Source: Candidatus Omnitrophota bacterium (GTDB taxonomy: Bacteria; Omnitrophota; Gorgyraeia; Duberdicusellales; 4484-171). From it: a stretch of DNA of 64,000 nucleotides. Shown one piece after another: positions 9,117-29,171 of the stretch (position 1 is its first letter; each line of letters starts with the position of its first letter). The stretch is taken from NCBI GenBank assembly GCA_014729775.1, contig WJJJ01000026.1, positions 16,948-80,947 of the forward strand. Direction: 5' to 3'. The translations under genes were made by a program, and so were the position numbers. The notes under the pieces are model-generated. The model was not told where the DNA came from. It was given only the letters and a program-made list of their open reading frames with translations, and did not search any database.

Positions 9117-9133
9117 GTGACGGTTCCTCCCGC

Positions 9134-10888: not shown

Positions 10889-11540
10889 TCTGCCTCCCTC
10901 AGTAGTTCCATGTAAATGTCGTCATACTGCCGCTGCAGCCTGGCCTGGAACCGGTTATCGTAGCGGAGACGTCCCTCGTCGGCTTCCAGCACTACCCCGA
11001 GGTCCTGAAACTGTCCCTCTTCCCAGTAGCAAACCACGGGTTTTCCGCATTGGTCATGAATACGTTCGCTCACTTCATTCCGAAAGCCGGAATCGAACAG
11101 GGGTGCGTCGTTGACCGCGTACCGCACGTGCAGCTGGGCACGGTCAATGACTTTCGCCCCCTCTAGGATCGCCTCCCGCAGAAACTGGCGGTACCCCGGA
11201 TCCTCCCGGAATTCCCGGGCGCGGCGCTTCACCTCCTCAAGAATCAACCGGGCGTAGGCGCTTTTTTGTTCCATCTGAGCCCGCCGTTTCTCTAAATGCA
11301 GGGAAGACAAATTTTTTTCCCGCAGTTTCTCCAGATCACTGCGGGCGGCAGACAGCATCTCATTCCGTTTCTCCCCAGCCGCGGCGCGCGCCTGGCGCCG
11401 GACATTTTCGGCATCACGTTCGGCACGTTCCCGGATACTGTGGATCTGTGTTTCGGCTTCAAGCCGGATCTGCTCGCAGATTTTCTCGGCATCCCGGGCA
11501 CTCATTGAAGAATAGTCGTTCGGTAATTGATTCATTCCGC

Positions 11541-11544
<4 letters not shown>
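10882..11544 (-). CDS. atpE: V/A-type ATP synthase subunit E
   Basis: 220 aa, N-terminal charged coiled coil plus C-terminal globular part, operon position between F and A. Confidence 0.7.
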
Positions 11545-12320
<776 letters not shown>

Positions 12321-14222: not shown

Positions 14223-15253
14223 ATTAACACCGCCTTTGTCATCTCGCTATCCCATCCGTACTGGATCGCGTAAGCCAGAGAAACACAATTTTTCGCTTCC
14301 CAGCGTACCATGACGCAGTACGCCAGCAGAGTACCGATGGTAAACGGAAACCCCGACATGACCCGCCTCGCTTCCCGCATCAAAATCGCGTACAGAAACT
14401 GCCCGACTAAATGTATATTCCGGGGAGAAAAACTTTTCAACTCAGGATACCCTCCCGCGTGCACACTCTCCATTAAACTCGTTAATTCACCGGCGTAATG
14501 CCGCCGCACTTCTTCTTTGCGTACTTTATCCCCTCCGGGAATGATCCAGCCCAGGATATCGTCGACCCCGGCAGCGTAATATTTCTTGAACCGGATCAGC
14601 CAGTGGATATTCTCCATGTCGATCTCGACCCCCAGCAGTTTACGCACGGCTTTCCGGTCGGAAAAAGACAATCTGGCCAGCGCGTCAAGTACCCGCCGGT
14701 AATAATCGATATCAAGCGCGATTTCCAGGAAAAACACCGATCCGTGGAGTTTGAATTTTTCCCGCGCGCCGTTGAGCGGACGGCGGTAGGGAGTTTTCTC
14801 CAGCGCGAGAATAAACTCCTCGATCGTCGCCGAAGCGAGCAATACCGCGACGTCCACCCCGCGGAACTGTTGCTGAAGAATTCCCCGGTCGGAAGGCACC
14901 GGTTCCTTTTTGTGCCAGGCCCGGATCAGCCTTTTTAAGCGTTCAATTTCATAACGCTCGCAGTACACTTCGAGAAACTCTTTCTCCCGCGCGGTCGGAA
15001 TCACCTGGATAAGACGCTGAAGCTGGCGGCGTTCGTTTACTCGTACGTATTTCTCGATCCCCTGGGCCCGTACCGGTTGCGTCGGCACCGAAACGTCCGG
15101 ATCGGGGGGATGCGCCCGCCGCACCCGGTTCCACAGATCGTCCAGATCCGCCCTTTCCGCGCACGTCCGGAAATCGTCACAGCTGAGCAACCGGGAAATC
15201 ATCCCCCGGGTTTTCGCGTTGAGAAACGCGTATTTGGATAGCTGCCCTATCAT
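14216..15253 (-). CDS. atpC: V/A-type ATP synthase subunit C (d-type)
   Basis: 345 aa all-helical protein at the conserved position between the G/H-like gene and I. Confidence 0.65.
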   Translation of the reverse strand: MIGQLSKYAFLNAKTRGMISRLLSCDDFRTCAERADLDDLWNRVRRAHPPDPDVSVPTQPVRAQGIEKYVRVNERRQLQRLIQVIPTAREKEFLEVYCERYEIERLKRLIRAWHKKEPVPSDRGILQQQFRGVDVAVLLASATIEEFILALEKTPYRRPLNGAREKFKLHGSVFFLEIALDIDYYRRVLDALARLSFSDRKAVRKLLGVEIDMENIHWLIRFKKYYAAGVDDILGWIIPGGDKVRKEEVRRHYAGELTSLMESVHAGGYPELKSFSPRNIHLVGQFLYAILMREARRVMSGFPFTIGTLLAYCVMVRWEAKNCVSLAYAIQYGWDSEMTKAVLIC

Positions 15254-18828: not shown

Positions 18829-18973
18829 AACCTGGCCGTTTTTGGGATGGAATTATTATATCAAGAAACCGGGCGTTGTAAACACGCAAAGTGCGCCGGA
18901 GACGGTTCCGGGAGGTGAAAGTTCGGCATGTTCAGGGAGTGAGGGAACACCGCGCAGACCCGTCCGCGCGGAT

Positions 18974-19369
18974 TTAATCTTCGGTAATTTCCCCGGTGGT
19001 CAAATCCATGGTGAAGGTAGGACCGGTGCCGGAAGCGGCAGCGGTCACGGTACTTCCGGAAATGGAATAATCATAGTTGTCGTCGGTAAAGGACAGCGAT
19101 ACGTCCGCTTCATCGTCCCCGTCAAGGTCGGCATCTATGGCGACCTCACCGGAACCGCCACCCGAAGTTAAATCTCCGGGCCAGTCTCCGGTCGCCGAAT
19201 GAATCGCCATGGATACTTCGCGGATTTCCTCAAGATTCCCCTTTACCCTGGAAGCCCTGGCCTTATCGACCGACTGCATGTACTGCGGAATAGCGACTAC
19301 GAGCAAAATCCCTAATATAATGGAAATAATGAGCAGTTCCAGTAACGTGAACCCCTTACGACTGCGCAT
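18974..19369 (-). CDS. prepilin-type N-terminal cleavage/methylation domain pilin (major pilin-like, paralogue 1)
   Basis: KGFTLLELLIISIILGILLVVAIPQY class III signal peptide; acidic C-terminal region with DADLDGDDE. Paralogous to 21344-21739. Confidence 0.8.
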   Translation of the reverse strand: MRSRKGFTLLELLIISIILGILLVVAIPQYMQSVDKARASRVKGNLEEIREVSMAIHSATGDWPGDLTSGGGSGEVAIDADLDGDDEADVSLSFTDDNYDYSISGSTVTAAASGTGPTFTMDLTTGEITED

Positions 19370-19455
19370 ATTTTTTTCTCCCTTCCCCGCCCGCCGGGCT
19401 CCTTTTATTGATCATATTTTTTCCCGTGCCGTGCAGCACCCGTGTCCGCCGCCGT

Positions 19456-20079
19456 TTACTGTCCCCAGGAATGGGTAAACGGATAGAAGTACTCTTCGGC
19501 GAGATTGACCTCGGGATTGGACTTCGGATCTTCCGCGTGCCCCGGCCGCTTGCGCATGGCCAGATCACTGATCAAAATACCCCCGTTCTGTTTTTGGATC
19601 GAGAGCCCGTCGGGATCGACGAGTTGATGGGAAAGCACCCGGGAATCGTCTATCACCCCGTTGTCATCGAAAACCTCAAACGTGACCGAATTCGCCGGAT
19701 AGGTACGGGTGGCGAACACGGTATCCGCGTTGTTGGTATTAAACACGTAGCAGACCTCGCGGTCATCGCCATAATCCTGGGGCGTGCGGTTCTCATTGCC
19801 GTTGACGTCCATATCCTGCCGCAGACATAACTGATGCACCCCTCCGGTTGCGTTCACCGAAATCCCGTCGCTCACCCGGTCGCCGGTAACCGTGAGCATA
19901 TTTTTGTGAAGGTGATCCACCAGCAGGGTCATCCGGTTGAGAATTTCCACGACATTCTCAGTGGTGGTAAACATGCGGGAACTCAGAATATGAAAAGATA
20001 CCGCGGCGAGCACGATACTCACCATCAGCACCATTGCCAGCAGGAGTTCAATCAAGGTCACGGCGCGCTTCATTCGCAT
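19456..20079 (-). CDS. prepilin-type minor pilin / pseudopilin
   Basis: RAVTLIELLLAMVLMVSIVLAAV N-terminal prepilin motif; 207 aa. Confidence 0.7.
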   Translation of the reverse strand: MRMKRAVTLIELLLAMVLMVSIVLAAVSFHILSSRMFTTTENVVEILNRMTLLVDHLHKNMLTVTGDRVSDGISVNATGGVHQLCLRQDMDVNGNENRTPQDYGDDREVCYVFNTNNADTVFATRTYPANSVTFEVFDDNGVIDDSRVLSHQLVDPDGLSIQKQNGGILISDLAMRKRPGHAEDPKSNPEVNLAEEYFYPFTHSWGQ

Positions 20080-20088
20080 GGCAGGTAT

Positions 20089-20493
20089 TTATTCTTCTTC
20101 CTGAGGGGTATCCTCATAGGTTACGTCCATCTGGACCCGGCGCAAATCCATCACTTCCCCGTCGATCGTGACCTGTTCCACCGTGTATTCCGGCGTATAA
20201 GTCGTCCCGTCGGGCCGGTCCATACTCGCGCCGGGATAATCCTGGGCACCTCCGCCGGCGGGATCAATGTAGAGATCGTTACTCGCATCGTCCCAGGTAT
20301 CGGCGCGCACATGGATGTAGAGCTCATCAAACTGATCCCGTGAGATATTCATCGACTGCAGTCGTTTATGGGCGCGGTCAACCAGCCTCTGCGCACCCAC
20401 GAACGAAGCCAGCAGTCCGCCGAAGGCGAAAGCGAGAATGCCCGCGGCCACGAGCAGTTCCACCAGGGTAAAACTCTTTCGCTGAAGATTCAT
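20089..20493 (-). CDS. prepilin-type minor pilin / pseudopilin
   Basis: KSFTLVELLVAAGILAFAFGGLLA prepilin motif; 134 aa. Confidence 0.7.
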   Translation of the reverse strand: MNLQRKSFTLVELLVAAGILAFAFGGLLASFVGAQRLVDRAHKRLQSMNISRDQFDELYIHVRADTWDDASNDLYIDPAGGGAQDYPGASMDRPDGTTYTPEYTVEQVTIDGEVMDLRRVQMDVTYEDTPQEEE

Positions 20494-20504
20494 GCTTCCT
20501 CCGT

Positions 20505-20912
20505 TTACTGCGGCACCGGCCGGTTCGGATCGTTCCCGCCGGTACAGTCGCCGGCCAGGATGTTCGGGTCACCTGGCCCGATATGCCACGCTCCATGGCT
20601 GGCACTTGCCGCCTCCGCGCAGAACCCTCCACCGCCGGCGGTCACGCGGTAGGTCCAGAAACCGTTCGTAGCGAGCGTCAGATTCAGCGCGTTGTTGCAG
20701 GCCGCGGTATCTGCGCAGGCCGCGTAACTGTTGGTGCGCAGTTCTTCCGATTCCTCCGCCGTCTGCAACAGCAGCAGCGCCCCCCGCGCTTCCCGGTCAT
20801 GCGCCCGCAGACGCGCGTTCCAGTAATTCGGCAGGGCGAACGTTGCCACCACGCCCACGATAACCACTACCATCAGCAGTTCTATAAGGGTAAAACCCCT
20901 TTGTTGCCCCAT
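20505..20912 (-). CDS. prepilin-type pilin
   Basis: Internal start MGQQRGFTLIELLMVVVIVGVVATFALPNY; Cys-rich C-terminal domain. Confidence 0.7.
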   Translation of the reverse strand: MGQQRGFTLIELLMVVVIVGVVATFALPNYWNARLRAHDREARGALLLLQTAEESEELRTNSYAACADTAACNNALNLTLATNGFWTYRVTAGGGGFCAEAASASHGAWHIGPGDPNILAGDCTGGNDPNRPVPQ

Positions 20913-20926
20913 GCTTTCTCCTGATC

Positions 20927-21343
20927 CTAAAAACAGCCGCCTTCGGCGAATACTCCGGTGTTGAGATCCAGCGTAACACTGTTCGCCGGCTGCGCGCCGC
21001 TGCAGAAACCGGTCTGTTTTTGCGCAGTCACGACTCCTCCCTGGACAGTGTAAAGCCACATCTGATCGTTCTGTACACTGCGCAGATCAATACCCGAAAC
21101 GTTGGTTCCGATCCGGTTATCGAGATTGGCAGGATTCGGCACGTTTACAAAGTTTCCGGTTTCGCTCCGGATAATCTGTTCCGCTTCGGCAATGAGCGCC
21201 ATCGCGTGCCGTGCCTTCGCTACCTCGGCTCGAAGCACCGAGCCGCGGTAGCGAGGGACTGCGACCGACGCCAACGCGACGATCACCACGGCGGCAATCA
21301 ACAATTCCAACAACGTGAATGCGGATTTTCGGCGCATATCCAC
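20927..21343 (-). CDS. prepilin-type pilin
   Basis: KSAFTLLELLIAAVVIVALASVAVPRY prepilin motif; C-terminal Cys pair. Confidence 0.7.
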   Translation of the reverse strand: MDMRRKSAFTLLELLIAAVVIVALASVAVPRYRGSVLRAEVAKARHAMALIAEAEQIIRSETGNFVNVPNPANLDNRIGTNVSGIDLRSVQNDQMWLYTVQGGVVTAQKQTGFCSGAQPANSVTLDLNTGVFAEGGCF

Positions 21344-21739
21344 CTAGTCGTCAGATTCGGTAATCTCTCCAGTTTCCAGATCAATGACGAATGTCGCGCC
21401 GCTTCCGGACGCGGTCACGTCGCTTCCGGAAATGGAGTAATCGTAGTCGTCATCGGTAAAGGACAGCGATACGTCCGTTTCGTCATCCCCGTCAAGGTCG
21501 GCATCAAGGGCGACCTCTCCGGCACCGTCGCCCGAATCTAAAGCGTCGGGCCAGTCTCCGGTCGCCGACTGAATCGCCATGGCGACTTTACGGATTTCCT
21601 GAAGATTACTCTTCGCGCTCGCTTCCTTGGCTTTCTGGACCGATTCCATGTACTGCGGAATAGCGATCACTGCCAGAAGACCTAAGATGATGACTACGAT
21701 CAGCAGTTCCAACAAGGTAAACGCCTTACGCTCTTTCAT
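21344..21739 (-). CDS. prepilin-type pilin (major pilin-like, paralogue 2)
   Basis: Start at internal MKERKAFTLLELLIVVIILGLLAVIAIPQY. About 80% nucleotide identity to 18974-19369, including the DADLDGDDE tail. Confidence 0.8.
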   Translation of the reverse strand: MKERKAFTLLELLIVVIILGLLAVIAIPQYMESVQKAKEASAKSNLQEIRKVAMAIQSATGDWPDALDSGDGAGEVALDADLDGDDETDVSLSFTDDDYDYSISGSDVTASGSGATFVIDLETGEITESDD

Positions 21740-21830
21740 ACAAACCCCCTTTTGTGAATAGGTTACGATAAAAAATCCCACTTTATTTATACCATACCCC
21801 GTCACCCGGTGTCAATCCCGGCGGAAAAAC

Positions 21831-23072
21831 TCACATTCCGCCGCCGCCGAGCTGGGATATGCGGAACATCGGCAGAAACAGGGATACCACCAGACCGCCG
21901 ATCAGCAGTCCCATGACCATGATCATGATCGGTTCGAACGCCGCGATCAGCCGTTCCACGCGGGTCGTCAGTTCTTTCCGATAATGGATGGATATCTTCT
22001 CAAACACCTGGGGCATCGTCCCGGTCTCCTCGCCGATCTTGGCCATTTCGGAGATCAGCAAAGGAAAAATATTCAGATTACGGAATTCATCGGAAAGGGA
22101 CGATCCCTCGCGCACCTTCTCCTTGACGTGAAGAATACTTTTTTCCAGACGGATGTTGCCGATCCCGTGGGCGGCGACTTCCAGGGTATATACCAGAGGC
22201 AGGCCGCTGTCGAGCAGAATGTAGACAGTGGAAGTCAAACGCTCCAGGCAGGCGTAAAAATGAAACGGCCCCAGCAGAGGGATTTTCAGCCGGATCTTAT
22301 CCCAGAGGGGACGGGTCTCCTGCGAGCGCATAAAATAGACCAGCCCGGCGACCGCCGCGATAAACCCGGCAAGCAGAAGAAAAAAATAGGTATTCACGAA
22401 TTTGCCGATCCCGAACACGATTTGCGTGGCCAGGGGCAGATCGACTCCGAAGTTATCGAATAATTCGATGAACTTCGGCAGGATCACCCGGAAAAACACG
22501 AAGACCACGACCACCGCCACGATCATCAACAGCGACGGGTATATCATCGCGCTTTTTATCTTGCGCTCGAATTCGATCCGCATTTCAAGATAATCCGCCA
22601 GTTTTTCGAGCACAAAGGGCAGGTTTCCCGAAGCCTCGCCTACTTCGACTATCCCGCGCCACAACGAAGAGAATACCTTCGGATACTTCCCGATTGCTTC
22701 GCCCAGCGACAGCCCTTCCTTGATCCGTTTGGCGCATTCACGGAGAATTTTTTCCAGTTTCGCGCTTTCGGTCTGAAAGGACAGGATCTCCAGACTCCGC
22801 AGCAGGGTCACCCCGCTGGAGAGCGTAGTGGCAAGATTACGGGCAAAAAAGGTCAGGTCGTATAGTTTCAGTGAATTGCGTTTCCCGCGGCGGCGGCGTA
22901 AAAAACCGGCACCTCCGCCCGCGCCCTTTTTCTCCTTCACTTCTTTGATCGAGATGATGAACAGTCCCCGCGCTCTGAGTTTGCCGATCAGTTCCTGGCG
23001 CGTATTCGCTTCTTCTATATCCCGTATCTTTCGGGCGTCCTGTGTTTTCGCCGAATAAATAAACTGCGGCAT
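21831..23072 (-). CDS. type II secretion / type IV pilus inner-membrane platform protein (GspF/PilC family)
   Basis: 413 aa, two GspF repeats, three TM segments. Confidence 0.85.
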   Translation of the reverse strand: MPQFIYSAKTQDARKIRDIEEANTRQELIGKLRARGLFIISIKEVKEKKGAGGGAGFLRRRRGKRNSLKLYDLTFFARNLATTLSSGVTLLRSLEILSFQTESAKLEKILRECAKRIKEGLSLGEAIGKYPKVFSSLWRGIVEVGEASGNLPFVLEKLADYLEMRIEFERKIKSAMIYPSLLMIVAVVVVFVFFRVILPKFIELFDNFGVDLPLATQIVFGIGKFVNTYFFLLLAGFIAAVAGLVYFMRSQETRPLWDKIRLKIPLLGPFHFYACLERLTSTVYILLDSGLPLVYTLEVAAHGIGNIRLEKSILHVKEKVREGSSLSDEFRNLNIFPLLISEMAKIGEETGTMPQVFEKISIHYRKELTTRVERLIAAFEPIMIMVMGLLIGGLVVSLFLPMFRISQLGGGGM

Positions 23073-23086
23073 ACGTTCCCCTTTGG

Positions 23087-24796
23087 TTAATACGCGATCG
23101 CCACTGAAAGCACTTCCTCAAGGGAAGTGACCCCTTCTTCAACCCTTTTGATCCCGCTCTCCAGCAGCGACTGGGATCCGTTCTTCCTCGCCGCCGCCAT
23201 GATCTCTCCCGGCGGCGCGTCGCGGGAGATCGCTTCACGGATCGAGTCATCGACATAGATGATTTCGGCCACCACGGTCCGTCCGCGGTACCCCACCATA
23301 TTACACTTTTCACACCCCTTGGGCCGGTAAATCACCGGCACATTGATCTTGACGTTTCGCGGCATATCTTCGGGTTTCACTTCATAGGCTTCTTTGCACT
23401 CCGGACACAAACGCCTCACCAGACGCTGGGCGACGATCAGCCGCAGAGAAGCCACGACCATATACTTAGGCACGCCGATATCGACCAGCCGGTCGATAGT
23501 CGTGGGGGCGTCGTTGGTATGCAGAGTGGAAAGGACCAGGTGGCCGGTAAGCGCCGAACGGATACCGATTTCCGCGGTTTCCAGATCGCGCACCTCCCCC
23601 ACCAGAATGATGTCCGGATCCTGGCGCAGAAACGAGCGCAGGGCGTTGGCGAAAGTAAGACCGATTTCCGGTTTTACCTGAACCTGGTTGATCCCCTGAA
23701 TCCGGTACTCGACCGGATCTTCAATGGTAAGCGTGTTCTTGGCCGACGATTTGATCTCGTTCAGTGCCGAATACAGCGTGGTCGATTTTCCGCTCCCGGT
23801 CGGCCCGACCAGAAAGACCAGCCCATAGGAGGAGGATATACCGTGACGAATCTTCTCCAGCTCATCCGGGAAAAAACCCAGTTTGGCCAAATCCAGCGGC
23901 ACGCGTGATTTATCCAGGATCCGCATGACTACCTTTTCCCCGAAAATCGTGGGCACCGTCGAGACCCGCAGATCGATCAGCCGTTTCATGATCTTGACCA
24001 TGAATCCGCCGTCCTGGGGCAGGCGTTTTTCCGCGATGTCCATTTTGGATAAGATCTTGACGCGGGAGACGATCGGCAAATACAGCGACACCGGCGGCGA
24101 CGGCATTTCATATAACACACCGTCGATACGGTAGCGCAGGGAAAGCTGTCCGTGGTGAGGCTCAATGTGGATATCGGAAGCGCTTTCCTCTATCGCCTGG
24201 CGGATGATCAAATCCACCAGTTTGACTACCGGCGCTTCCTCGGCCCGCGCGATCAGCGTATCCAGACTCAAATCGGTCTCTTCCGAGCCGATCTCCTTGA
24301 TTTCCTCATCGACCGTTTTTTCCACCGCGTCCATAGCTTCGCGGTAAAACTTATCCTTGCCGTAAAAAGATTCAATGGCATGAAGGATGTCGGACTTGGT
24401 ACTCACAACCGGATTTACCTCGCAGCCGGTGAGCTTCTTCAAATTGTCCATCAGGATCAAATCAAGGGGATCAAACATGACCACCGTAAGTGAATTCAGA
24501 CTTTTGGAAAGCGGCAGGACCAGATTCCGGATCGCGAAGTCGTAGGGGATCATGTTTTCCAGATTCTGCTCCGCGGCGGGTTTGAGCTTGCCGGAAGAAA
24601 GAGATACGTAGGGAATGGAAAGCTGCTTACTGAGCGCGATCACGATCTGCTCTTCATTGACATAATCGAGCTGGATCAGCGTTTCGCCCAGTCGTCCGCC
24701 TTCCTTTTTCTGCGCTGAAAGCGCTTCCTTGATCTGATCTTCGGTAACGATCCCTTCTGCGGTGAGAATATCGCCGAGTTTTTTATATCGTGCCAT
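23087..24796 (-). CDS. type II secretion / type IV pilus assembly ATPase (GspE/PilB family)
   Basis: 569 aa; N1E-like N-terminus, Walker A GPTGSGKSTT, Asp/His boxes, tetracysteine CPEC...CEKC. Confidence 0.9.
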   Translation of the reverse strand: MARYKKLGDILTAEGIVTEDQIKEALSAQKKEGGRLGETLIQLDYVNEEQIVIALSKQLSIPYVSLSSGKLKPAAEQNLENMIPYDFAIRNLVLPLSKSLNSLTVVMFDPLDLILMDNLKKLTGCEVNPVVSTKSDILHAIESFYGKDKFYREAMDAVEKTVDEEIKEIGSEETDLSLDTLIARAEEAPVVKLVDLIIRQAIEESASDIHIEPHHGQLSLRYRIDGVLYEMPSPPVSLYLPIVSRVKILSKMDIAEKRLPQDGGFMVKIMKRLIDLRVSTVPTIFGEKVVMRILDKSRVPLDLAKLGFFPDELEKIRHGISSSYGLVFLVGPTGSGKSTTLYSALNEIKSSAKNTLTIEDPVEYRIQGINQVQVKPEIGLTFANALRSFLRQDPDIILVGEVRDLETAEIGIRSALTGHLVLSTLHTNDAPTTIDRLVDIGVPKYMVVASLRLIVAQRLVRRLCPECKEAYEVKPEDMPRNVKINVPVIYRPKGCEKCNMVGYRGRTVVAEIIYVDDSIREAISRDAPPGEIMAAARKNGSQSLLESGIKRVEEGVTSLEEVLSVAIAY

Positions 24797-24799
24797 ACC

Positions 24800-24819
24800 T
24801 TCTTTCCGTTGAGAAAGAA
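24800..24819 (-). promoter_or_regulatory. perfect 7-bp inverted repeat (TTCTTTC-N6-GAAAGAA) overlapping the Shine-Dalgarno-like sequence of the GspE/PilB gene
   Basis: mRNA reads uucuuuc-ucaacg-gaaagaa-ggu-AUG; the 3' arm contains the only purine-rich SD-like element. Confidence 0.3.
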
Positions 24820-24844
24820 TGTGCCGCGCGCCTGCGATCGCTAC

Positions 24845-26386
24845 TCACCGGGCGTATCGGTCAAGCGTCTGCTCAATGAGCACGCGTTTTTGCGGATTAT
24901 ACTGTTCGCGATGCGGCATCATCGTTTTCTGCGCTAACTGCCTGGTTTTTTCTTCAAGCACGTGCGGCGTCAGGAACACGAGAAGTTCACGCTCCTGCAC
25001 GTCCTGGTTTTTCCACCGGAAAAAACGTCCCAAAAAGGGCACATCACCCAAAATCGGCACTTTAGTATTGTTTTTCGTGGACTCGGTCTTAATTAGTCCG
25101 CCGATCAGCAGAGTCTCGCCGTTCTCAAGACGGGCGATCGCGGTCGCCGACCGTTCCTCGGGATCCTTAATGCTTCCCGCAATAAACGCCTCCGCGGTCT
25201 CGGTCCCCAGCGTAAATCCGCTGTCTTTCGCTTCCCGAACCACCGCTTCCACAAACAGGGTGATCTCGTCGTTCTCGTGATTCACCTGCGGCGTGACCCG
25301 GAGCCGGGTCCCGGTCTGCGCACGTTCGGTGGTAAAGGTCGTTCTGTCGGTATCTCCCGACTCCTCGCGTGTCACTCCGATCGCCTCATCGGTCGTGATC
25401 TGAATTTCCGCGGTCTGATTGGCCAGGGTAAGAATCCGCGGCCGGGCCAGAGATTTGGTATCCGACAAACTGCGCAGAAAATTCAGCACCAGATCAGCCC
25501 CCACCACGGTCAGGACCGTGGGAGTGAACGAGCCCGCGGGGTTTCCGCTGAATTCCCAGTTATCCAGGATAGCTCCTTCCTGCACGTCAAATGAGCCGTA
25601 GTTCGGCGTCGCCGAATACTCGCCGAACGGGAACCGGGTAAATCTCGTTCCCGATACTCCCAGCGAGACCAGGCTGTCCGGCCAGTTGACTCCCATTTTA
25701 TCGATGTTGCGCTTGGACACGTCCAGCATTTCCACCTCGATCATCACCCGCTTCGGTGATCTGTCCAGCCGGTAAATCACCTCGTCGATCATGGGAAACT
25801 GCGCGGGCACATCCACGACGATCAGAGAATTGGTGATCGGATCCTCGCTCACTCTTCCGAATTCGCTGAGCACGGTCTCCACCGCTTTTTTCAGCCCGAT
25901 GAGTTCTTCCTGATCGCCTTCTTCACCCTCTTCTCCTTCTTCGCCTTCTTCCTCCCCGGTACCCATCACGGAATCGATTTCGGTTTTCATCCGGGTGGAA
26001 TCCACGCGCAGATATTTGAGCTGATACACCTTGGTTTTCAGCTCGATGGTCGGCTTGCCCATCTCCTTGACCACGAACACATTGGCCTCCGGATAAAAAT
26101 CGTAGGTAAGATTGTTCGCTTTAAAAATGATATCCAGCGCTTCCTTTAACGGCACGTCCTCCAGATAGAGCACCAGCTTTCGGTCCTGCACCGCTTCGGT
26201 GGAAACGAAATTCAAACCGGTCTGCTGGGAAAGCATCTTGAGCACCCCCACCAGACGCGCGCCTTCCAGATCAAGAGAAACCCGTTTCTTGACGCCGGCG
26301 ATCAGGTAATCACCGTACATGGAATCCTGAGCCCCGGCACTCAGGCCGACGGTAAGCAACAGCAATAAAACGAGCAGTCTTTTCAT
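24845..26386 (-). CDS. secretin (GspD/PilQ family outer-membrane channel)
   Basis: Signal peptide, N-domains, C-terminal secretin motif VPILGDVPFLGRFFR; contains a GEEGEEGEEGEE insertion. Confidence 0.85.
   Translation of the reverse strand: MKRLLVLLLLLTVGLSAGAQDSMYGDYLIAGVKKRVSLDLEGARLVGVLKMLSQQTGLNFVSTEAVQDRKLVLYLEDVPLKEALDIIFKANNLTYDFYPEANVFVVKEMGKPTIELKTKVYQLKYLRVDSTRMKTEIDSVMGTGEEEGEEGEEGEEGDQEELIGLKKAVETVLSEFGRVSEDPITNSLIVVDVPAQFPMIDEVIYRLDRSPKRVMIEVEMLDVSKRNIDKMGVNWPDSLVSLGVSGTRFTRFPFGEYSATPNYGSFDVQEGAILDNWEFSGNPAGSFTPTVLTVVGADLVLNFLRSLSDTKSLARPRILTLANQTAEIQITTDEAIGVTREESGDTDRTTFTTERAQTGTRLRVTPQVNHENDEITLFVEAVVREAKDSGFTLGTETAEAFIAGSIKDPEERSATAIARLENGETLLIGGLIKTESTKNNTKVPILGDVPFLGRFFRWKNQDVQERELLVFLTPHVLEEKTRQLAQKTMMPHREQYNPQKRVLIEQTLDRYAR
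25913..25960 (-). repeat. in-frame tandem 9-bp repeats (GAAGARGGN x4) encoding GEEGEEGEEGEE in the secretin gene
   Basis: Plus strand gccttcttcaccctcttctccttcttcgccttcttcc; translates on the minus strand to EEGEEGEEGEEGD. Confidence 0.7.
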
Positions 26387-26417
26387 TATTCCTCCTTCAA
26401 ATTGGGAATACGATTCG

Positions 26418-26822
26418 TTATTTGGTCACCCCGCGCTTAAATAACTTTCCCCGGTACATAAAAAACACGTTATTTTCTTCGATCTTGAACACCGTCGCCT
26501 CGGCGTCATTATAATACACCGTTTCGCCGACCGCGTATACATCGTCGTTGATCAGGGCCCGCGGCGTATCAGTACCCCATAAAATCCCCTGCACCGGGAT
26601 AGACGGCAGTACGATCGTTTCCGGCTCGGGTTCACCCTGCGGCCCTCCCGGCTCCTCGGGCAGTAATGATTTAAACGGATCGCGTTCGACCGCCGGAATA
26701 CTCAGGGGGACATCGGACACCTGCGCCAGCCCCGCGCGTTCCCCCCGCCACACGCCCGTAAAGGCCAAGGCCGCGGTCAGCGATAGGATCACTCCGGCTT
26801 TATGACACCACAATCTCATCAT
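26418..26822 (-). CDS. PilP/GspC-HR-like periplasmic protein (secretin-interacting)
   Basis: Signal/TM segment, Pro/Glu-rich linker, C-terminal beta-domain resembling PilP / GspC HR (GILWGTDTPRALINDDVYAVGETV). Confidence 0.4.
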   Translation of the reverse strand: MMRLWCHKAGVILSLTAALAFTGVWRGERAGLAQVSDVPLSIPAVERDPFKSLLPEEPGGPQGEPEPETIVLPSIPVQGILWGTDTPRALINDDVYAVGETVYYNDAEATVFKIEENNVFFMYRGKLFKRGVTK

Positions 26823-27313
26823 TCCCCCTGCAGGACATAATACCCGACCAGATCGGCGCGTACCCGCTTGCCGCCGTTCCGGGCCTCACGCACCGTCATG
26901 GTCTTCACCTGGATATTCTTGTGCTCCACCGTATTTACGAACTCCAGAATATCGGTGTACGTTTCGGAAGTGAATTCAAGATAAATTTCCGACACCCCGT
27001 ACCCGTCCTCTTCCCGCTGTTTGGGACGCAGCGCCTCCATATCGACCCCGCTCTCATACGCCGCCTGCTCCACGAAGCGTTTATACTCAATGGGATCGGA
27101 AAAGGCGAACGCTTCGCGCAGAGCCCCGAATTCTTTGTTCACACGTCTCCAGGACGCGATCATCTCCTGTCCCTCTTTCACCTCTTCGACCTGGCGGTTG
27201 ACCGCCTCAAGATCTCCTGCGTATTTCTTGTAGACGCCGTGTACGACAAACGCGGTCACTACCGCGAGCGTCACCACGATAAACACATTTTTATATTCCG
27301 ACAGACGGTTCAT
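26819..27313 (-). CDS. PilO/GspM-like bitopic inner-membrane assembly protein
   Basis: Single N-terminal TM, coiled coil, periplasmic domain; position between the PilM-N fusion and the PilP-like gene. Confidence 0.5.
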   Translation of the reverse strand: MNRLSEYKNVFIVVTLAVVTAFVVHGVYKKYAGDLEAVNRQVEEVKEGQEMIASWRRVNKEFGALREAFAFSDPIEYKRFVEQAAYESGVDMEALRPKQREEDGYGVSEIYLEFTSETYTDILEFVNTVEHKNIQVKTMTVREARNGGKRVRADLVGYYVLQGE

Positions 27314-28797
27314 TTCTCCTCCATCCGAATTTCGAACGAAGTCACTTCATATTCATTTTGCGCGTTCCGTGTCGATGAAACCATCTCCACCGATCCGAAC
27401 AGCCCGAATCGAGAGTTGTGCTCCCGGAGTTCCCGTACGAATTCATCGATACTGACCCGCTCCTTCAGGCTGTCGCCGAGGAACGAAAATCCCGATACAC
27501 TTCCTTGATATCCGTTCTCCCGTTTGGTCAACCGTATTTCATTGAGCCATATGCCGTCGGGCAGTACGTCCGGCAGATTATTGAAAAAGGAACTGGTCCG
27601 TTTGAATTTATCCTGAAGACGCCGAAGGACCGTCACTTCGTTGCGGCGCGACTGCAGACGCTGTGCCCGGTCTTCCCAGGAGAGCCCGCGGAATTCCTCG
27701 GGCAGATTCAGCGCGGCTTCCATTTTGTTCAGCTTCAGCTTCTGGTCAAAGATCACGTTACTGAAAAGCACCGCCACCAGGACCGACGCAAGGATCCCCA
27801 CGCCCAGCACGATCCCGATCGCCAGGTAATTGATCCCCACCCTGGTAGGTTCCATCGACTGCTGTATTTTTACTTCCTCTTCCTTGGTTTCCTGCAATTC
27901 GGGCGAAAACTTGTAGGGGAAAGTTTCCCGACCGGCGGTCCCCAGCGCTTTTGCCCCCTCGACCTCGTTCACCCGATCGTCGATTTCAGTCGCCAGTACC
28001 GCGGATATGTCCAGCTGGAGATCCTCTTTCAACGCAGCAATGATGTCCTCCCGCGGCGTATCGGTCACTACCACCAGTTTATTGATGGAATAGGCCCGGA
28101 ATTCCCGCAGAAAATACTGAAAAGAGAGTCTCACCGACTCGGTGTATTTGCCCGTGTCGAACTCACCCTCCTGTTCCACCGCCAAATAGCGGTTAAATAC
28201 CGGCAGTTCGTTATAGAAGAAGGTCAGATACGACTCGTGCCGGGTAAGATCGAGCACGGCAAAATTTTTCAAGCCTGAATATTTTTTCACTGACTTGAGC
28301 GTCCGTACCAGCGCGATACAAGCCGGTTCGATGATGGTCGGGGTAAGGTCAAGGTGAGAAAAGATCGTCTGGACTTTCCGGTAATTCTCCTGCTTTATCC
28401 CGATAAAACAGACCATCAGCTTTTTTTCCTTCGCCAGACGGGCGTAGCTGTAATCCCAGATCAGTTCGGTCACCTTAAAGGGAATATGTTTTTCGATCTC
28501 GTACATGAGCGAGGCGCTGAGTTCGTTCTTGTTCATCATCGGCATTTCGAACGAACGGAAGATGAAATCCCGGTCGCCGAGGGCGACGCTCACGTCTTTT
28601 TCGTCACTGTGAATCTGACGGAGGGTTTTATTGATCAGGGCTTCCCATTTGACGTCTTCGCTCAATGTTTCGACCTGTGCGTCCTCCTCAAGAGAAGAGA
28701 GATCGAACTTTGCCGCGGCCAGGGCGCGCTTGGCTTCGGCCAGAACCGCCCCGATCGAATTCACGCCCAAATAAATACCGAGATTTTTTCGTGCCAT
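27310..28797 (-). CDS. PilM-PilN fusion protein (GspL-like architecture)
   Basis: N-terminal actin-like PilM domain (LGIYLGVNSIGAVLAE...), central TM (INYLAIGIVLGVGILASVLVAVLF), periplasmic PilN-like coiled coil. Confidence 0.6.
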   Translation of the reverse strand: MARKNLGIYLGVNSIGAVLAEAKRALAAAKFDLSSLEEDAQVETLSEDVKWEALINKTLRQIHSDEKDVSVALGDRDFIFRSFEMPMMNKNELSASLMYEIEKHIPFKVTELIWDYSYARLAKEKKLMVCFIGIKQENYRKVQTIFSHLDLTPTIIEPACIALVRTLKSVKKYSGLKNFAVLDLTRHESYLTFFYNELPVFNRYLAVEQEGEFDTGKYTESVRLSFQYFLREFRAYSINKLVVVTDTPREDIIAALKEDLQLDISAVLATEIDDRVNEVEGAKALGTAGRETFPYKFSPELQETKEEEVKIQQSMEPTRVGINYLAIGIVLGVGILASVLVAVLFSNVIFDQKLKLNKMEAALNLPEEFRGLSWEDRAQRLQSRRNEVTVLRRLQDKFKRTSSFFNNLPDVLPDGIWLNEIRLTKRENGYQGSVSGFSFLGDSLKERVSIDEFVRELREHNSRFGLFGSVEMVSSTRNAQNEYEVTSFEIRMEEK

Positions 28798-28988
28798 CAG
28801 CCCTCTTTCGATTTACAGCTCTTCAGCCACTCGTCGATATACTTTCGGTCGAACCGCCACACCTTCCCGATTTTGATCCCTGAAATCTTCTTCTGATGCA
28901 GCCAGTTGTAGATCGTCTGCTTCTTCAGCCCGAGATAATCGGCAAGCTCGTCGACACTCATCAGGCGGGATGTTTTGTTTTTCTTCAT
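28797..28988 (-). CDS. helix-turn-helix DNA-binding protein (excisionase/MerR-like HTH_17 family)
   Basis: 63 aa; LMSVDELADYLGLKKQTIYNWLHQKKISGIKIGKVWRF matches the excisionase-family HTH. Its stop overlaps the PilM-N start (ATGA at 28795-28799). Confidence 0.65.
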   Translation of the reverse strand: MKKNKTSRLMSVDELADYLGLKKQTIYNWLHQKKISGIKIGKVWRFDRKYIDEWLKSCKSKEG

Positions 28989-29032: not shown

Positions 29033-29061
29033 ATTTAAATATTTTTATTTAATAAAGTCAA
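29033..29061 (-). promoter_or_regulatory. candidate sigma70-type promoter for the HTH/pilus operon
   Basis: Minus strand TTGACT (29056-29061), 17 nt, TTAAAT (29033-29038), about 45 nt upstream of the HTH start. Confidence 0.3.
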
Positions 29062-29091
29062 GTAATTTTTATCATCTTTTTACGCGGTTTT

Positions 29092-29171
29092 CCTATATAT
29101 TGTGGTTTTCAATCCCCCCCCCGATATATAGGGCATAAAAATGCTCCCACGACCCGCTGTTTCTATATAGG
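29092..29171 (-). promoter_or_regulatory. three copies of a (C)CTATATA(T/G)G motif, two inverted and flanking the C9 tract plus one direct; candidate operator
   Basis: CCTATATAT at 29092-29100, ATATATAGG at 29124-29132 (inverted repeat of the first), TCTATATAGG at 29162-29171. Confidence 0.45.
29114..29122 (-). repeat. homopolymeric C9 (G9 on the transcribed strand) tract in the pilus-cluster promoter region
   Basis: Nine consecutive C at 29114-29122, inside the only strongly AT-rich intergenic region of the window. Confidence 0.85.

Follow-up and report, generated by a model that had tools for sequence, protein, structure and literature searches.

A probable type IV pilus locus with a co-encoded HTH protein and a conserved promoter in Omnitrophota

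Introduction

Omnitrophota is an uncultured nanobacterial phylum whose cells are ultra-small and host-associated. A 64 kb stretch of DNA from a Candidatus Omnitrophica MAG (here the window) was found to carry 13 tightly packed minus-strand genes (18974-28988) in which parts resembling those of type IVa pili (T4aP) and of type II secretion systems (T2SS) occur together. This raises the question of which machine the locus encodes, and of what a small DNA-binding protein does in its operon. We regard as probable a type IV filament machine of the T4aP/MSH/T2SS branch that is self-contained, belongs to the vertically inherited core genome of Omnitrophota, forms a surface pilus and has a dedicated HTH regulator.

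Results and Discussion

Gene content and distribution

All 13 open reading frames were recovered (Table 1), and domain searches with Pfam, NCBIfam and orthologue profiles agreed with every gene assignment of an earlier note on this DNA, as well as with its view that T4aP-like and T2SS-like parts are mixed in one machine and that the operon includes a DNA-binding protein of its own. The order of transcription is HTH_17, PilM-PilN fusion (PilMN), PilO/GspM-like, GspC-HR/PilP-like, short secretin, PilB-type ATPase, platform and six prepilins. The HTH gene, said in that note to share an ATGA with PilMN, overlaps it by 1 nt (TGATG); the ATGA overlaps are those of PilMN with the PilO-like gene and of the latter with the PilP-like gene.

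Table 1 Features of the locus and its surroundings, with positions in the window.
Feature	Position	Strand	Details
Conserved promoter/operator region	29033..29134	-	register-exact conservation in 55 species, anchored on -35
Box A, imperfect palindrome GCCCTATATATCGGGG	about 29119-29134	-	within promoter/operator region
Box B CACAATATATAGG	29092-29104	-	within promoter/operator region
10 bp-phased A-tract region	29062-29090	-	degenerate form of the three AAATTAT repeats of other species
-35 TTGACT	29056-29061	-	
-10 TTTAAAT	29033-29039	-	
63 aa Xis/BldC-type winged-helix (HTH_17) protein	28797..28988	-	first operon gene; stop overlaps PilMN start
495 aa PilM-PilN fusion, GspL/MshI-type topology	27310..28797	-	Pfam PilM_2 (residues 8-203), PilN (404-492)
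164 aa bitopic PilO/GspM-like protein	26819..27313	-	ATGA overlap with PilMN
134 aa bitopic protein, C-terminal GspC-HR/PilP-type beta domain	26418..26822	-	profile of 43 orthologues
513 aa short secretin	24845..26386	-	Pfam Secretin, Secretin_N, STN-like region
Acidic insert GEEEGEEGEEGEEG	25904-25957		inside Secretin_N domain
569 aa PilB-type extension ATPase	23087..24796	-	T2SSE 448 bits, MshEN 63 bits
MshEN motifs of ATPase	24623-24781		residues 6-58
413 aa inner-membrane platform protein, GspF/PilC family	21831..23072	-	two T2SSF domains
Putative internal sigma-70-like promoter before pilin genes	21786..21815	-	TTGACA, 18 nt spacer, TGgTATAAA; read from this window
Prepilin 1, putative major pilin, 131 aa	21344..21739	-	N_methyl 26.9 bits; DADLDG (DxDxDG) at 21488-21505
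Prepilin 2, minor pilin, 136 aa, 2 Cys	20927..21337	-	N_methyl 24.2 bits; orthologues in other loci
Prepilin 3, minor pilin, 135 aa, 4 Cys	20505..20912	-	N_methyl 32.6 bits; true start MGQQRGFTLIELL
Prepilin 4, GspI-like minor pilin, 134 aa	20089..20493	-	N_methyl 23.2 bits; weak XpsI/GspI matches
Prepilin 5, largest minor pilin, 207 aa	19456..20079	-	motif KRAVTLIELL; N_methyl 16.5 bits, below cutoff 21.2
Prepilin 6, prepilin 1 paralogue, 131 aa	18974..19369	-	N_methyl 28.8 bits; DADLDG at 19118-19135
GC-rich hairpin CCGCGCGGACGGGTCTGCGCGG, likely operon end	18950..18971	-	sequence; directly after last pilin gene
CpaF/TadA-type ATPase	43869-45119		T2SSE family

About 60 Omnitrophota species (at least 58 to 60) share the order HTH-MN-O-P-Q-E-F(-pilins), so that the arrangement is not due to chance, and the interval from MN to Q holds exactly two ORFs in 45 of 46 loci. 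Since the recurrent locus is often found downstream of glycine-cleavage and lipoate genes, in a conserved gcvT/gcvP/lplA/lipA neighbourhood, it looks vertically inherited. The lineage specificity proposed earlier was supported by this distribution and by the ATPase and platform proteins, each of which forms its own Omnitrophota clade in neighbour-joining trees, although these trees are rough and their references are not experimentally characterised. The 64 kb window contains no GC anomaly, no tRNA gene and no known RNA family.

The absence of PilT and PilD from the vicinity held for the 64 kb window. No PilT-like paralogue was detected in it by tblastn with the PilB-type ATPase, the one other T2SSE-family protein being of CpaF/TadA type, and the only window proteins with at least five predicted TM segments are V-ATPase subunit I, an SNF transporter and CdsA.

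Inner-membrane assembly proteins

PilMN comprises an actin-like cytoplasmic domain (about residues 1-300), a TM helix (322-345), a coiled helix and a periplasmic ferredoxin-like PilN domain (416-493). Its AF2 model (pLDDT 87.7) retrieved PilM as the top Foldseek match (E 1e-17), together with FtsA (1e-11) and GspL-cyto (8e-10), and its profile matches both PilM and PilN of the M. xanthus machine. Pfam, AF2 and Foldseek thus agree with the earlier description of PilM and PilN in one polypeptide with the topology of GspL. The fusion is not novel, and the oddness of the locus was overstated: fused PilM_2 and PilN proteins of 460-513 aa are the GspL of T2SS clusters in Nitrospirota, Desulfobacterota, Elusimicrobia and a proteobacterial MAG.

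Taken alone, neither the 164 aa nor the 134 aa protein of the window gave a Pfam match. A profile built from 43 orthologues of the former matched M. xanthus PilO (E 0.0015), and single members were assigned to PilO (16/43), T2SSM (7/43) or T2SSM_b (2/43). The corresponding profile of the latter matched the GspC HR domain (3oss_C, E 1.5e-5, and 2lnv), its members falling into T2SSB (16/43) and T2SSC (14/43) and none into PilP.

These proteins bear on the reading of the cluster as a T2SS, whose periplasmic pseudopilus would push folded exoproteins, e.g. hydrolases used in predation or parasitism, through the secretin. Its order would be L-M-C-D-E-F-G-(minor pseudopilins), a circular permutation of the canonical C-to-M order. 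We consider this reading unlikely, although it is favoured by the GspL type of the fused protein, by the presence of fused relatives in the GspL role of genuine T2SS clusters, which have GspK and T2SSM_b as well, and by the matches of the HR protein to GspC and GspB. However, the HR protein lacks both a PDZ and a coiled-coil substrate-recognition domain; a lipobox is likewise absent.

The MSHA locus of V. cholerae encodes MshI (GspL/PilN-like), MshJ (PilO-like), MshK, MshL (secretin), MshE (c-di-GMP ATPase) and MshG, followed by the pilin operon, with no prepilin peptidase and with PilT encoded elsewhere (PMC4624765; PMC6668835). The Omnitrophota locus has the same gene order, likewise an ATPase with c-di-GMP-binding motifs, and neither peptidase nor PilT. 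This parallel speaks for a pilus, and the suggestion of a system matching no textbook example is not supported.

Secretin, ATPase and platform

The secretin consists of a signal peptide, an STN/N0-like region, one Secretin_N and the secretin domain, with neither AMIN nor S domain in Pfam searches. Its NCBIfam scores were 187 bits for PilQ, 177.5 for GspD and 126.7 for MshL, all below the cutoffs. The single N-domain, unlike the N0-N3 series of T2SS, argues against secretion.

The ATPase scored 614 bits with the PilB model and 587 bits with that of GspE, and its full-length PDB matches are Geobacter and Myxococcus PilB (about 500 bits), whereas GspE structures match its C-terminal part only (about 400 bits). 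At the N-terminus it bears intact tandem 24-residue c-di-GMP-binding MshEN motifs (NF053729, 65.5 bits, curated cutoff 38), which are kept in all orthologues. The absence of the GspE N1E domain and the grouping with PilB, in that the Omnitrophota clade is sister to a T4aP PilB and apart from the GspE clade of T2SS, again speak against a T2SS. The platform protein resembles a T2SS more closely, with 329 bits for the GspF model and 249-286 bits for PilC models, all below cutoffs; this preference for GspF, like that of the HR protein for T2SSC and T2SSB over PilP, counts against a pilus.

Prepilins

Five of the six prepilins passed the N_methyl cutoff. Three pilin genes, at first taken as the longest ORFs, were replaced by shorter ones with true starts at 21739 (MKERKAFTLLELL), 21337 and 20912. 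Prepilin 6 shares 72% identity and the DADLDG motif with prepilin 1; prepilin 4 is kept in most loci, where prepilin 5 adjoins it. Prepilin 5 was ruled out as GspK, being too small, and no minor pilin of GspK size occurs in the cluster.

Prepilin 1 is very acidic and devoid of Cys, and its N-terminal part finds its best match in GspG. With its GspG-like size and a DxDxDG motif of Ca-binding type, the window's own major pilin looks pseudopilin-like, which weighs for secretion and against a pilus, as does the single locus without PilT; retraction of the filament would be putative. Across species, however, the ATPase has a median identity of 71%, the first pilin one of 44% and the C-terminal domain of the latter one of 35%, whereas in T2SS control clusters the conservation of GspG equals or exceeds that of GspE. 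The major pilin was taken as the first pilin after the platform gene, and these first pilins are possibly not orthologous in all species, so that the variability may be exaggerated. Most orthologous major pilins also have the C-terminal Cys pair of a pilin-type disulfide. The missing GspK and a major pilin that is hypervariable between species, unlike control GspG, speak against the earlier description of the pilin set as T2SS-pseudopilin-like, and the rate at which the major pilin evolves, far above that of the motor, is more in keeping with an exposed pilus than with a secretion pseudopilus. Predation by Omnitrophota has been linked to T2SS-like loci, but the published locus beside giant genes contains rcpC and Rotamase_2 and is not the one described here (10.1101/2023.11.21.568195).

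For the surface pilus that we favour, the following mode of action can be proposed. Binding of c-di-GMP to the N-terminal MshEN domain would switch on the PilB-type hexameric ATPase, which would work on the GspF/PilC platform and be anchored by the single-chain PilM-PilN protein of GspL/MshI topology. PilM-PilN, the PilO-like and the HR-domain proteins would link this inner-membrane motor to the short secretin. Prepilins would be processed by a peptidase encoded elsewhere, the four minor pilins may prime the filament, and the fast-evolving major pilin would be polymerised through the secretin into a surface-exposed pilus, probably serving these ultra-small, host-associated cells as an attachment organelle.

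HTH protein and promoter

The machine is built of known parts in a known order, and what sets the Omnitrophota locus apart is its own tiny DNA-binding protein and its conserved promoter. The 63 aa protein matches Pfam HTH_17 (62.6 bits, E 4e-17) and TIGR01764 'excise' (58.6 bits, cutoff 28.8), and its PDB sequence match is 4j2n (E 0.0014). Fold neighbours of its AF2 model (pLDDT 84) are Pukovnik Xis, RdfS, BldC, the GIsul2 excisionase and the MerR N-domain. With 68-89% identity to 58 orthologues it is the most conserved product of the operon; in 58 of 60 species its gene directly precedes PilMN, to which it is tightly coupled everywhere. The protein retains an intact DNA-binding fold in which recognition helix and wing do not vary; the absence of a signal peptide indicates that it is cytoplasmic.

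Throughout the phylum, about 100 bp of promoter DNA is conserved. It includes three AAATTAT repeats, spaced at 10 bp and adjoining the -35, as well as two ACAATATATAG boxes. A scan of 849 kb of Omnitrophota loci gave 113 matches to the boxes and 82 to the phased repeats, of which 80 and 76, respectively, lie at most 220 nt upstream of the HTH gene, so that these motifs are almost exclusive to its promoter; ACAATATATAG occurs once in the window. Both the near-invariant Xis/BldC-like protein, translationally coupled to its operon, and the promoter with its AAATTAT array appear to be new. The near-invariance of the protein and the conserved promoter/operator array are the two most distinctive features of the locus, and the earlier note had missed both.

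Members of this protein class recognise direct repeats with a spacing of one helical turn (PMC7498355; PMC5859096). By analogy with them, the protein is predicted to bind the three AAATTAT repeats cooperatively, possibly also the two ACAATATATAG boxes, and would be the dedicated (auto)regulator of the operon. The degenerate repeats of the window itself count against such binding. Covariation of the outer arms of Box A (CAC/GTG, CCC/GGG, TAC/GTA), against an HTH protein that does not vary, suggests that another factor or a DNA structure acts at Box A.

Its extreme conservation and translational coupling to PilMN would also suit a role as stoichiometric protein partner, e.g. of the PilM-like domain or the ATPase, in place of one in transcription, and the Xis-like protein TorI works through protein-protein contacts too. 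We regard this as improbable given the intact fold with its invariant recognition helix and wing, and a repeat array co-conserved beside the gene's own promoter, as befits an operator; the two roles are, moreover, mutually compatible.

A competence pilus, with the HTH protein handling DNA instead of regulating transcription, is distinctly improbable. PilMNOPQ T4a-type pili take up DNA in several phyla, according to a review (PMC6370729), the machine is translationally coupled to a DNA-binding protein, prepilin 3 gave a weak ComP_DUS match (E 0.002, below cutoff), and reduced genomes could benefit from nucleotide scavenging. Yet the HTH protein is cytoplasmic, comEA, comEC and dprA are absent from the cluster and its conserved flanks, and transcriptional control better accounts for the conserved operator-like DNA that directly precedes the HTH gene.

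Hardly tenable is a genuine excisionase, with the cluster on or beside an integrative mobile element. The best family matches (TIGR01764 and a phage Xis structure) point that way, together with a match to the MADS1 defence-system HTH (67.7 bits, cutoff 80), but the gene keeps its place upstream of PilMN, its chromosomal neighbourhood of housekeeping genes is conserved, no integrase was found among the flank genes scanned, the window shows neither tRNA gene nor GC shift, and the homologues form a tight group whose named members are all from Omnitrophota.

For the regulated pilus operon that we prefer, transcription would start from at least two promoters, before the HTH gene and before the pilin genes, as in the two msh operons. 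The hairpin after the last pilin gene is only terminator-like, because it has no strong T-tract. The next gene, that of the SNF transporter, has its own near-consensus promoter (18882-18855, 11/12 matches in a promoter scan).

Organization of the gene cluster

The 13 ORFs of the pilus cluster all run in one direction and either overlap or are separated by no more than 91 nt (table). When every protein was compared with HMM profiles, the product of the second gene gave PilM_2 and PilN and no unrelated family, as the earlier note had read it. The overlap of the first two genes, described in that note as ATGA, is a single base between the HTH stop and the PilMN start (TGATG), and ATGA overlaps are found at the following two junctions. 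The secretin and ATPase genes are separated by 48 nt with no gene between. An internal near-consensus promoter, TTGACA-18-TGgTATAAA, was read from the sequence before the first pilin gene. A simple promoter/terminator scan flagged neither this promoter nor that of the HTH gene, because their -10 hexamers deviate at scored positions.

Features of the pilus cluster, its promoter and its surroundings in the window; promoter motifs are given as conserved across 55 species.
Feature	Position (strand)	Size	Assignment or motif	Identity to window gene across loci
Pilus cluster	28988-18974 (-)	13 ORFs		
HTH protein	(-)	63 aa	HTH_17/excisionase family (Pfam, NCBIfam)	68-89%
PilMN	27310-28797 (-)	495 aa	PilM_2 (residues 8-203) and PilN (404-492)	29-57% (full-length matches 29-45%)
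O protein	(-)	164 aa	own sequence without Pfam/NCBIfam match	19-32%
P protein	(-)	134 aa	own sequence without Pfam/NCBIfam match	27-51%
Secretin	(-)	513 aa	STN-like region, one Secretin_N, Secretin domain	41-60%
Insert in secretin N-domain	25904-25957 (-)	18 residues	acidic, low complexity, GEEEGEEGEEGEEGDQEE	
ATPase	(-)	569 aa	T2SSE, MshEN and c-di-GMP motif domain	64-78%
Platform protein	(-)	413 aa	two T2SSF domains	49-63%
Six prepilins	(-)		class III signal peptides	
True starts of three pilin genes	21739, 21337, 20912			
DADLDG sites of the two major-pilin paralogues	21488-21505 and 19118-19135 (-)			
Promoter of HTH gene	29033-29134			
Box A	29119-29134 (-)		CACAATATATAGTGG, imperfect palindrome, furthest upstream	
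Box B			ATACAATATATAG, 29 nt downstream of Box A	
Direct repeats			three AAATTAT at exactly 10 bp spacing, after Box B and next to -35	
Core promoter			CTTGACA (-35), 16-17 nt spacer, TTTAAT or TTAAAT (-10)	
Leader			another AATTATA, downstream of -10	
V/A-type ATPase operon	~7120-15253 (-)			
CpaF/TadA-type ATPase	43869-45119 (-)	416 aa		

One flank of the cluster carries genes for an SNF transporter, a beta-lactamase-like protein, a TrkA_C-domain protein and a V-type ATPase, and the other carries gcvPB, gcvPA and gcvT together with genes for SIR2-family, Cu-oxidase_4 (laccase-type) and RmuC proteins. The window shows no GC step along its length and contains neither tRNA genes nor Rfam families at gathering thresholds. 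A riboswitch or other known RNA in the leader of the HTH gene was discarded, the window having no Rfam match and the leader measuring only about 35-40 nt. A T2SS-like locus next to giant genes, also considered, is a different locus, and there is no giant ORF in the window.

The absence of PilT and of the prepilin peptidase PilD near the cluster, noticed before, holds for the whole 64 kb window. A tblastn search with the cluster ATPase disclosed no PilT-like paralogue, the sole other gene of the T2SSE family being that of the CpaF/TadA-type ATPase, and a hydropathy screen of all ORFs gave no polytopic candidate for PilD, the polytopic proteins being V-ATPase subunit I, SNF and CdsA. A PilT-sized match in one related locus (L004:235-1032, 33% identity to the ATPase over ~265 aa), situated ~5 kb before the HTH gene on its upstream side, suggests that some of the genomes with the cluster may have retraction ATPases.

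Distribution and inheritance

A scan for related loci, with one genome per GTDB species, returned 79 loci (L001-L079). In 60 of them (L001-L060) the genes follow the order HTH-MN-O-P-Q-E-F, with three to six prepilin genes thereafter in most; the gene order is thereby common to the lineage, a point that the earlier note had asked to be checked. The block is kept only up to the platform gene in L046, L050 and L054, and only up to the ATPase gene in L041. These 60 loci belong to Omnitrophota, despite the label Planctomycetia on some bins and Methanosarcinales on one. The PilMN of the window is identical to a protein of a Candidatus Omnitrophica MAG, and all named full-length PilMN homologues (36-45% identity, 485-515 aa) are likewise from Omnitrophota. 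Upstream of the cluster, gcvT-gcvPA-gcvPB, often followed by lplA-lipA, is present in at least 17 species. From the shared order and this recurring gcv/lipoate neighbourhood, the locus is therefore old and vertically inherited, and is not an island.

Among the public bins that carry the cluster (L004, L006, L012, L014, L017, L018 and others; L016, L028), several are named 'uncultured Planctomycetia' and one 'Methanosarcinales archaeon', labels that probably reflect problems of taxonomy assignment or binning. The 'chromosome' records CP070797 and CP070807 consist of contigs joined by 100-N gaps and break inside the cluster.

The remaining 19 of the 79 loci (L061-L079) are weak PilM matches. Three of these, from Omnitrophota (L061, L062 and L073), hold a canonical T4aP locus with separate PilM, PilN, PilO, PilP and PilQ, as well as two PilB-like ATPases, PilC, a PilS-like kinase and a pilin. 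At least two distinct machines of the PilMNOPQ type therefore occur in the phylum, and presence/absence tables listing 'T4aP' may merge them. One Omnitrophota MAG has, directly upstream of the HTH-led cluster, a further filament gene set of a different kind (L051:871-9289), which consists of a secretin, a PilB-like ATPase of 606 aa, a platform protein and a short ORF resembling an ATPase.

Family placement of the motor, platform and secretin

None of the NCBIfam equivalog models reached its cutoff for these three proteins. The ATPase scored 614 bits with PilB (cutoff 675.65) and 587 with GspE (630), the platform protein 329 bits with GspF (424) and 249-286 with PilC (700), and the secretin 187 bits with PilQ (284), 177.5 with GspD (351) and 126.7 with MshL TIGR02519 (250.2). 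The PDB structures matching the ATPase end to end, at ~500 bits, were those of Geobacter and Myxococcus PilB, and GspE structures aligned to it only from residue 164-180 onward. Its N-terminus was assigned to MshEN (Pfam, 63.2 bits) and not to the N1E domain, which was absent there, and the c-di-GMP motif model NF053729 scored 65.5 bits (cutoff 38). The tandem MshEN motifs appeared intact by eye and are conserved in orthologues; the assignment rests on the NCBIfam domain match, a regular-expression search of the motif having given nothing. The ATPase is thus predicted to carry a c-di-GMP input. The secretin possesses one Secretin_N domain and not N0-N3, and its N-domain bears an acidic low-complexity insert.

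In neighbour-joining trees, which are rough and built from sequences gathered in this analysis, the cluster ATPases and platform proteins each formed a tight clade of their own. The ATPase clade was sister to a T4aP PilB and apart from the T2SS GspE group, while the platform clade joined neither the PilC nor the GspF group. As no equivalog cutoff was reached and both proteins form their own clades, we place the system in the T4aP/MSH/T2SS branch without a subtype assignment.

The PilM-PilN fusion and the O and P proteins

In the AlphaFold2 model of PilMN (pLDDT 87.7), an actin-like domain (residues ~1-300) is followed by a long TM helix, then by a coiled helix and a ferredoxin-like domain. Foldseek ranked PilM first (E ~1e-17), FtsA next and then the cytoplasmic domains of GspL (4pht_Y, 1yf5 and 5tkw, E 8e-10 to 2e-8); the T2SSL Pfam model had no match in the protein. 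In the accepted correspondence, PilM plus PilN are the counterparts of GspL, PilO of GspM, and PilP of the GspC HR domain (PMC4471445). Given the fold ranking and this equivalence, the 495 aa protein is, as modelled, a PilM/PilN sequence relative in GspL topology. The earlier view that PilM and PilN form one chain arranged as in GspL is borne out by the Pfam domains, the predicted topology and the Foldseek matches to cytoplasmic GspL, and the fusion is present in all ~60 orthologous loci.

In 45 of 46 loci, PilMN and the secretin gene are separated by exactly two ORFs. The profile of the first family (O) matched M. xanthus PilO (E 0.0015), and its members, taken singly, matched the Pfam models PilO (16/43), T2SSM (7/43) and T2SSM_b (2/43). 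That of the second (P) matched the GspC HR domain 3oss_C (E 1.5e-5), its members matching T2SSB (16/43), T2SSC (14/43) and PilP (0/43); the profile matches the HR fold common to PilP and GspC, although the PilP Pfam model is not matched. Neither a PDZ domain nor a coiled-coil part was found in the P protein.

Pilins

The identities of the ATPase and of the first pilin, the putative major one, were compared in ten Omnitrophota loci, with T2SS clusters as control. Median identity was 71% for the ATPase and 44% for the pilin (local alignment), the C-terminal part of the latter giving 35% over ~57 residues. In the T2SS controls GspG was conserved as much as GspE or more, as in an example where GspE was 55% identical, GspG 66% and the GspG C-terminal domain 61%. 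In most orthologues the first pilin closes with a Cys-X(n)-Cys pair, as in T4a pilins, and the largest prepilin has 207 aa and no T2SSK match, against ~330 aa for the control GspK. A surface-exposed filament is favoured because of the fast first pilin, the cysteine pair and the absence of GspK.

That the prepilins instead build the pseudopilus of a secretion system appears unlikely, since the first pilin diverges much faster than the ATPase, which control GspG does not, GspK is missing, and the cysteine pair closes most of the orthologues. Several traits nevertheless speak for such a pseudopilus. Prepilins 1 and 6, which are 72% identical and stand at the ends of the pilin block, contain no cysteine and are strongly acidic (28 and 22 D+E, respectively, vs 8 K+R); both carry the sequence DADLDG, of the DxDxDG calcium-loop type, which recalls Ca-dependent pseudopilins; and the best-scoring models in the cluster include GspF, GspG and T2SSC/T2SSB. 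The GspG model matches prepilin 1 over its N-terminal 60 residues only (44 bits, cutoff 88.85). Of note, the two paralogues with the DADLDG site flank the four minor pilin genes; they lack cysteine, whereas most of their orthologues in other species have the C-terminal Cys pair instead.

The HTH protein and its promoter

In 58 of 60 loci the HTH gene immediately precedes PilMN; of the two exceptions, one is cut by a contig end. Its product scored 62.6 bits with Pfam HTH_17 (cutoff 27) and 58.6 bits with TIGR01764 (28.8), and the recognition helix and wing, KQTIYNWL ... KIGKVWRFD, are invariant. Of 297 homologues at E < 1e-5, the best 120 show identities of at least 73%, and those among them that carry a name are all from Omnitrophota. 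The model (pLDDT 84) superposes on Pukovnik Xis, RdfS, BldC-DNA complexes, the GIsul2 excisionase, RacA and MerR N-domains (TM 0.65-0.77), and Pukovnik Xis is the sole significant sequence match in the PDB.

When the DNA preceding the HTH gene is aligned on its -35 hexamer, conservation in register is seen across 55 species, with two boxes and a series of phased repeats (table). Across 849 kb of Omnitrophota sequence, the 220 nt upstream of the HTH gene accounted for 80 of 113 matches to the boxes and 76 of 82 to the phased repeats, and in the window the box and repeat motifs occur once. No further regulon targets were found in the window or in the 849 kb of Omnitrophota flanks, and none before the pilin genes. 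The repeats of the window itself are degenerate A-tracts, and only its Box B equals the consensus exactly.

Members of the Xis/RDF class recognize direct repeats set one helical turn apart, and their binding is cooperative and involves bending (PMC7498355), and BldC binds direct repeats as head-to-tail multimers (PMC5859096). In the simplest reading of the conserved array, the HTH protein would be a dedicated (auto)regulator that occupies the phased repeats beside the -35 hexamer. One observation is not explained by autoregulation of this kind. The outer three base pairs of Box A covary across species (CAC..GTG, CCC..GGG, TAC..GTA; L001-L059), and the inner core AATATATA and the HTH protein remain constant while these arms vary; Box A may be a symmetric target of some other factor, or may form a DNA hairpin or cruciform.

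The HTH protein was also considered as the excisionase of a mobile element. This was rejected on the position kept in 58 of 60 species, the housekeeping flanks and the lack of a GC step and of tRNA genes; no site-specific recombinase was detected in the flanks scanned.

Comparison with known systems

The architecture had been thought to lie outside textbook systems, a view that was not supported, as the MSHA pilus of V. cholerae has the same layout apart from MshM, MshN and MshF. The MSHA locus contains mshI (GspL/PilN-like), mshJ (PilO-like), mshK, mshL (secretin), mshM, mshN, mshE, mshG and mshF; a second operon of pilin genes (mshBACDOPQ) follows, mshE encodes a c-di-GMP-binding ATPase and PilT is encoded elsewhere (PMC4624765). 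MSH loci are single loci without a prepilin peptidase, and MshM is mandatory in the TXSScan MSH model (PMC6668835). The Omnitrophota cluster is likewise a single locus in which MN-O-P-Q-E-F corresponds to I-J-K-L...E-G, a separately promoted pilin block follows, the ATPase has an N-terminal MshEN domain with predicted c-di-GMP binding, and neither a prepilin peptidase nor PilT is included. It differs from MSHA, a system of Proteobacteria, in having no MshM (ExeA-like ATPase), MshN (TPR) or MshF, in a secretin that scores far under the MshL equivalog cutoff, and in its extra leading HTH gene with the conserved operator array.

The T4aP systems of Myxococcus, Geobacter, Pseudomonas and Thermus share with the cluster the full-length PilB match, PilM as the best fold match of the cytoplasmic domain, the pilM-N-O-P-Q order with a PilO-matching O protein and the secretin after P, and a variable major pilin that is disulfide-bearing in most Omnitrophota species. 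Unlike in these systems, PilM and PilN are one polypeptide with the TM helix between them, the secretin has no AMIN domains, PilT is not nearby, and the HR protein is not a lipoprotein and matches GspC/GspB rather than PilP. In addition, T4aP genes are usually distributed over several loci (PMC6668835), whereas the cluster is a single one.

As regards T2SS, a GspL-topology protein and the GspC-HR match are common to both, but the cluster has no GspK, no conserved GspG, no N1E and no N0-N3. Eleven of the weak PilM matches (L061-L079), from Nitrospirota, Desulfobacterota, Elusimicrobia and MAGs labelled Proteobacteria, encode fused PilM_2+PilN proteins of 460-513 aa with a TM helix near residue 305-340. 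In L065, L066, L074-L076, L078 and L079 the fused gene directly follows a GspK-type gene (~300-360 aa), and in L065 the next gene matches T2SSM_b; these fused proteins are therefore GspL of T2SS, and the fusion is not the unusual trait it had been taken for. In such T2SS (L065-L079) the genes after the fusion likewise encode a PilO/GspM-like protein, then an HR-type protein and a secretin, and some of the GspE proteins also have MshEN-like N-termini. However, these systems have a GspK of ~330 aa, a slowly evolving GspG, the order E-F-G-H-I-J-K-L-M-C-D and no HTH gene; their fused proteins match PilMN only in part (21-34% identity), and their ATPases and platform proteins belong to other neighbour-joining clades.

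The HTH protein resembles Xis/RDF proteins and BldC (lambda and Pukovnik Xis, Apl, RdfS, Streptomyces BldC) in its length of 60-70 aa, its HTH_17/excisionase family and its fold, and its gene adjoins direct repeats one helical turn apart, a layout typical of binding sites for such proteins (PMC7498355, PMC5859096), to which the HTH protein is predicted to bind. It differs from them in being dedicated to a pilus operon, without integrase or mobile element, and in being almost invariant over a whole phylum.

Novelty and significance

In the available text of Seymour et al., T4aP is reported in nearly all Omnitrophota from TXSScan-type calls (presence/absence only), pili are linked to a host-associated lifestyle, and the fusion, the HTH protein and the promoter are not mentioned (PMC10066038). 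The same text describes Omnitrophota as abundant, uncultured and ultra-small, thought to be predators, parasites or partners of other cells, with pili as the main candidates for attachment (PMC10066038). The parts of the cluster, the fusion and the order are all known elsewhere. What is new is how these are combined, that the combination is kept throughout the phylum, and that a Xis-like regulator with an operator array is built in; for this regulator and its promoter no counterpart was found in the literature searched.

The locus represents a core machine, vertically inherited, whose parts are defined and for which a c-di-GMP input is predicted. Its regulatory module is very simple (a 63 aa protein and ~100 bp of conserved DNA) and could be studied in vitro or in a heterologous host, with no need to culture the organism. 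To the study of type IV filaments the cluster adds a well-populated intermediate between T4aP, MSH and T2SS, in which the fusion is of GspL type, the HR protein GspC-like, the motor PilB-like and the pilin fast-evolving; it bears on how secretion systems and pili diverged. A further proposal, which must be regarded as quite improbable, is that of a separate Omnitrophota-specific filament class, sister to T4aP/MSH/T2SS, with the Xis-like protein as an obligatory, co-evolved part that forms, with the operator, a phylum-wide genetic switch. If true, the Xis-like protein, the phased repeats and the two boxes, one of them a palindrome with covarying arms, would time the deployment of a host-attachment filament.

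Other ATPase genes in the window

The V/A-type ATPase operon is situated 4-12 kb downstream of the pilus cluster. Its subunits C/AC39, I, F and E were identified, and ORFs of 584 and 460 aa are presumably A and B. Co-location of an F-type ATPase with T4aP in Omnitrophota is described in the available text of Seymour et al. (PMC10066038); a link between the present operon and the cluster was discarded, as V/A-type genes adjoin the cluster in none of the other loci compared.

The CpaF/TadA-type secretion ATPase is an orphan, with no Tad genes adjoining. It scored 332 bits with CpaF structures and 288 bits with TIGR03819, under the cutoff of that model. Its gene lies between ispG (GcpE) and that of a class II tRNA synthetase, in a housekeeping run including uppS, cdsA, dxr, rseP and ispG.
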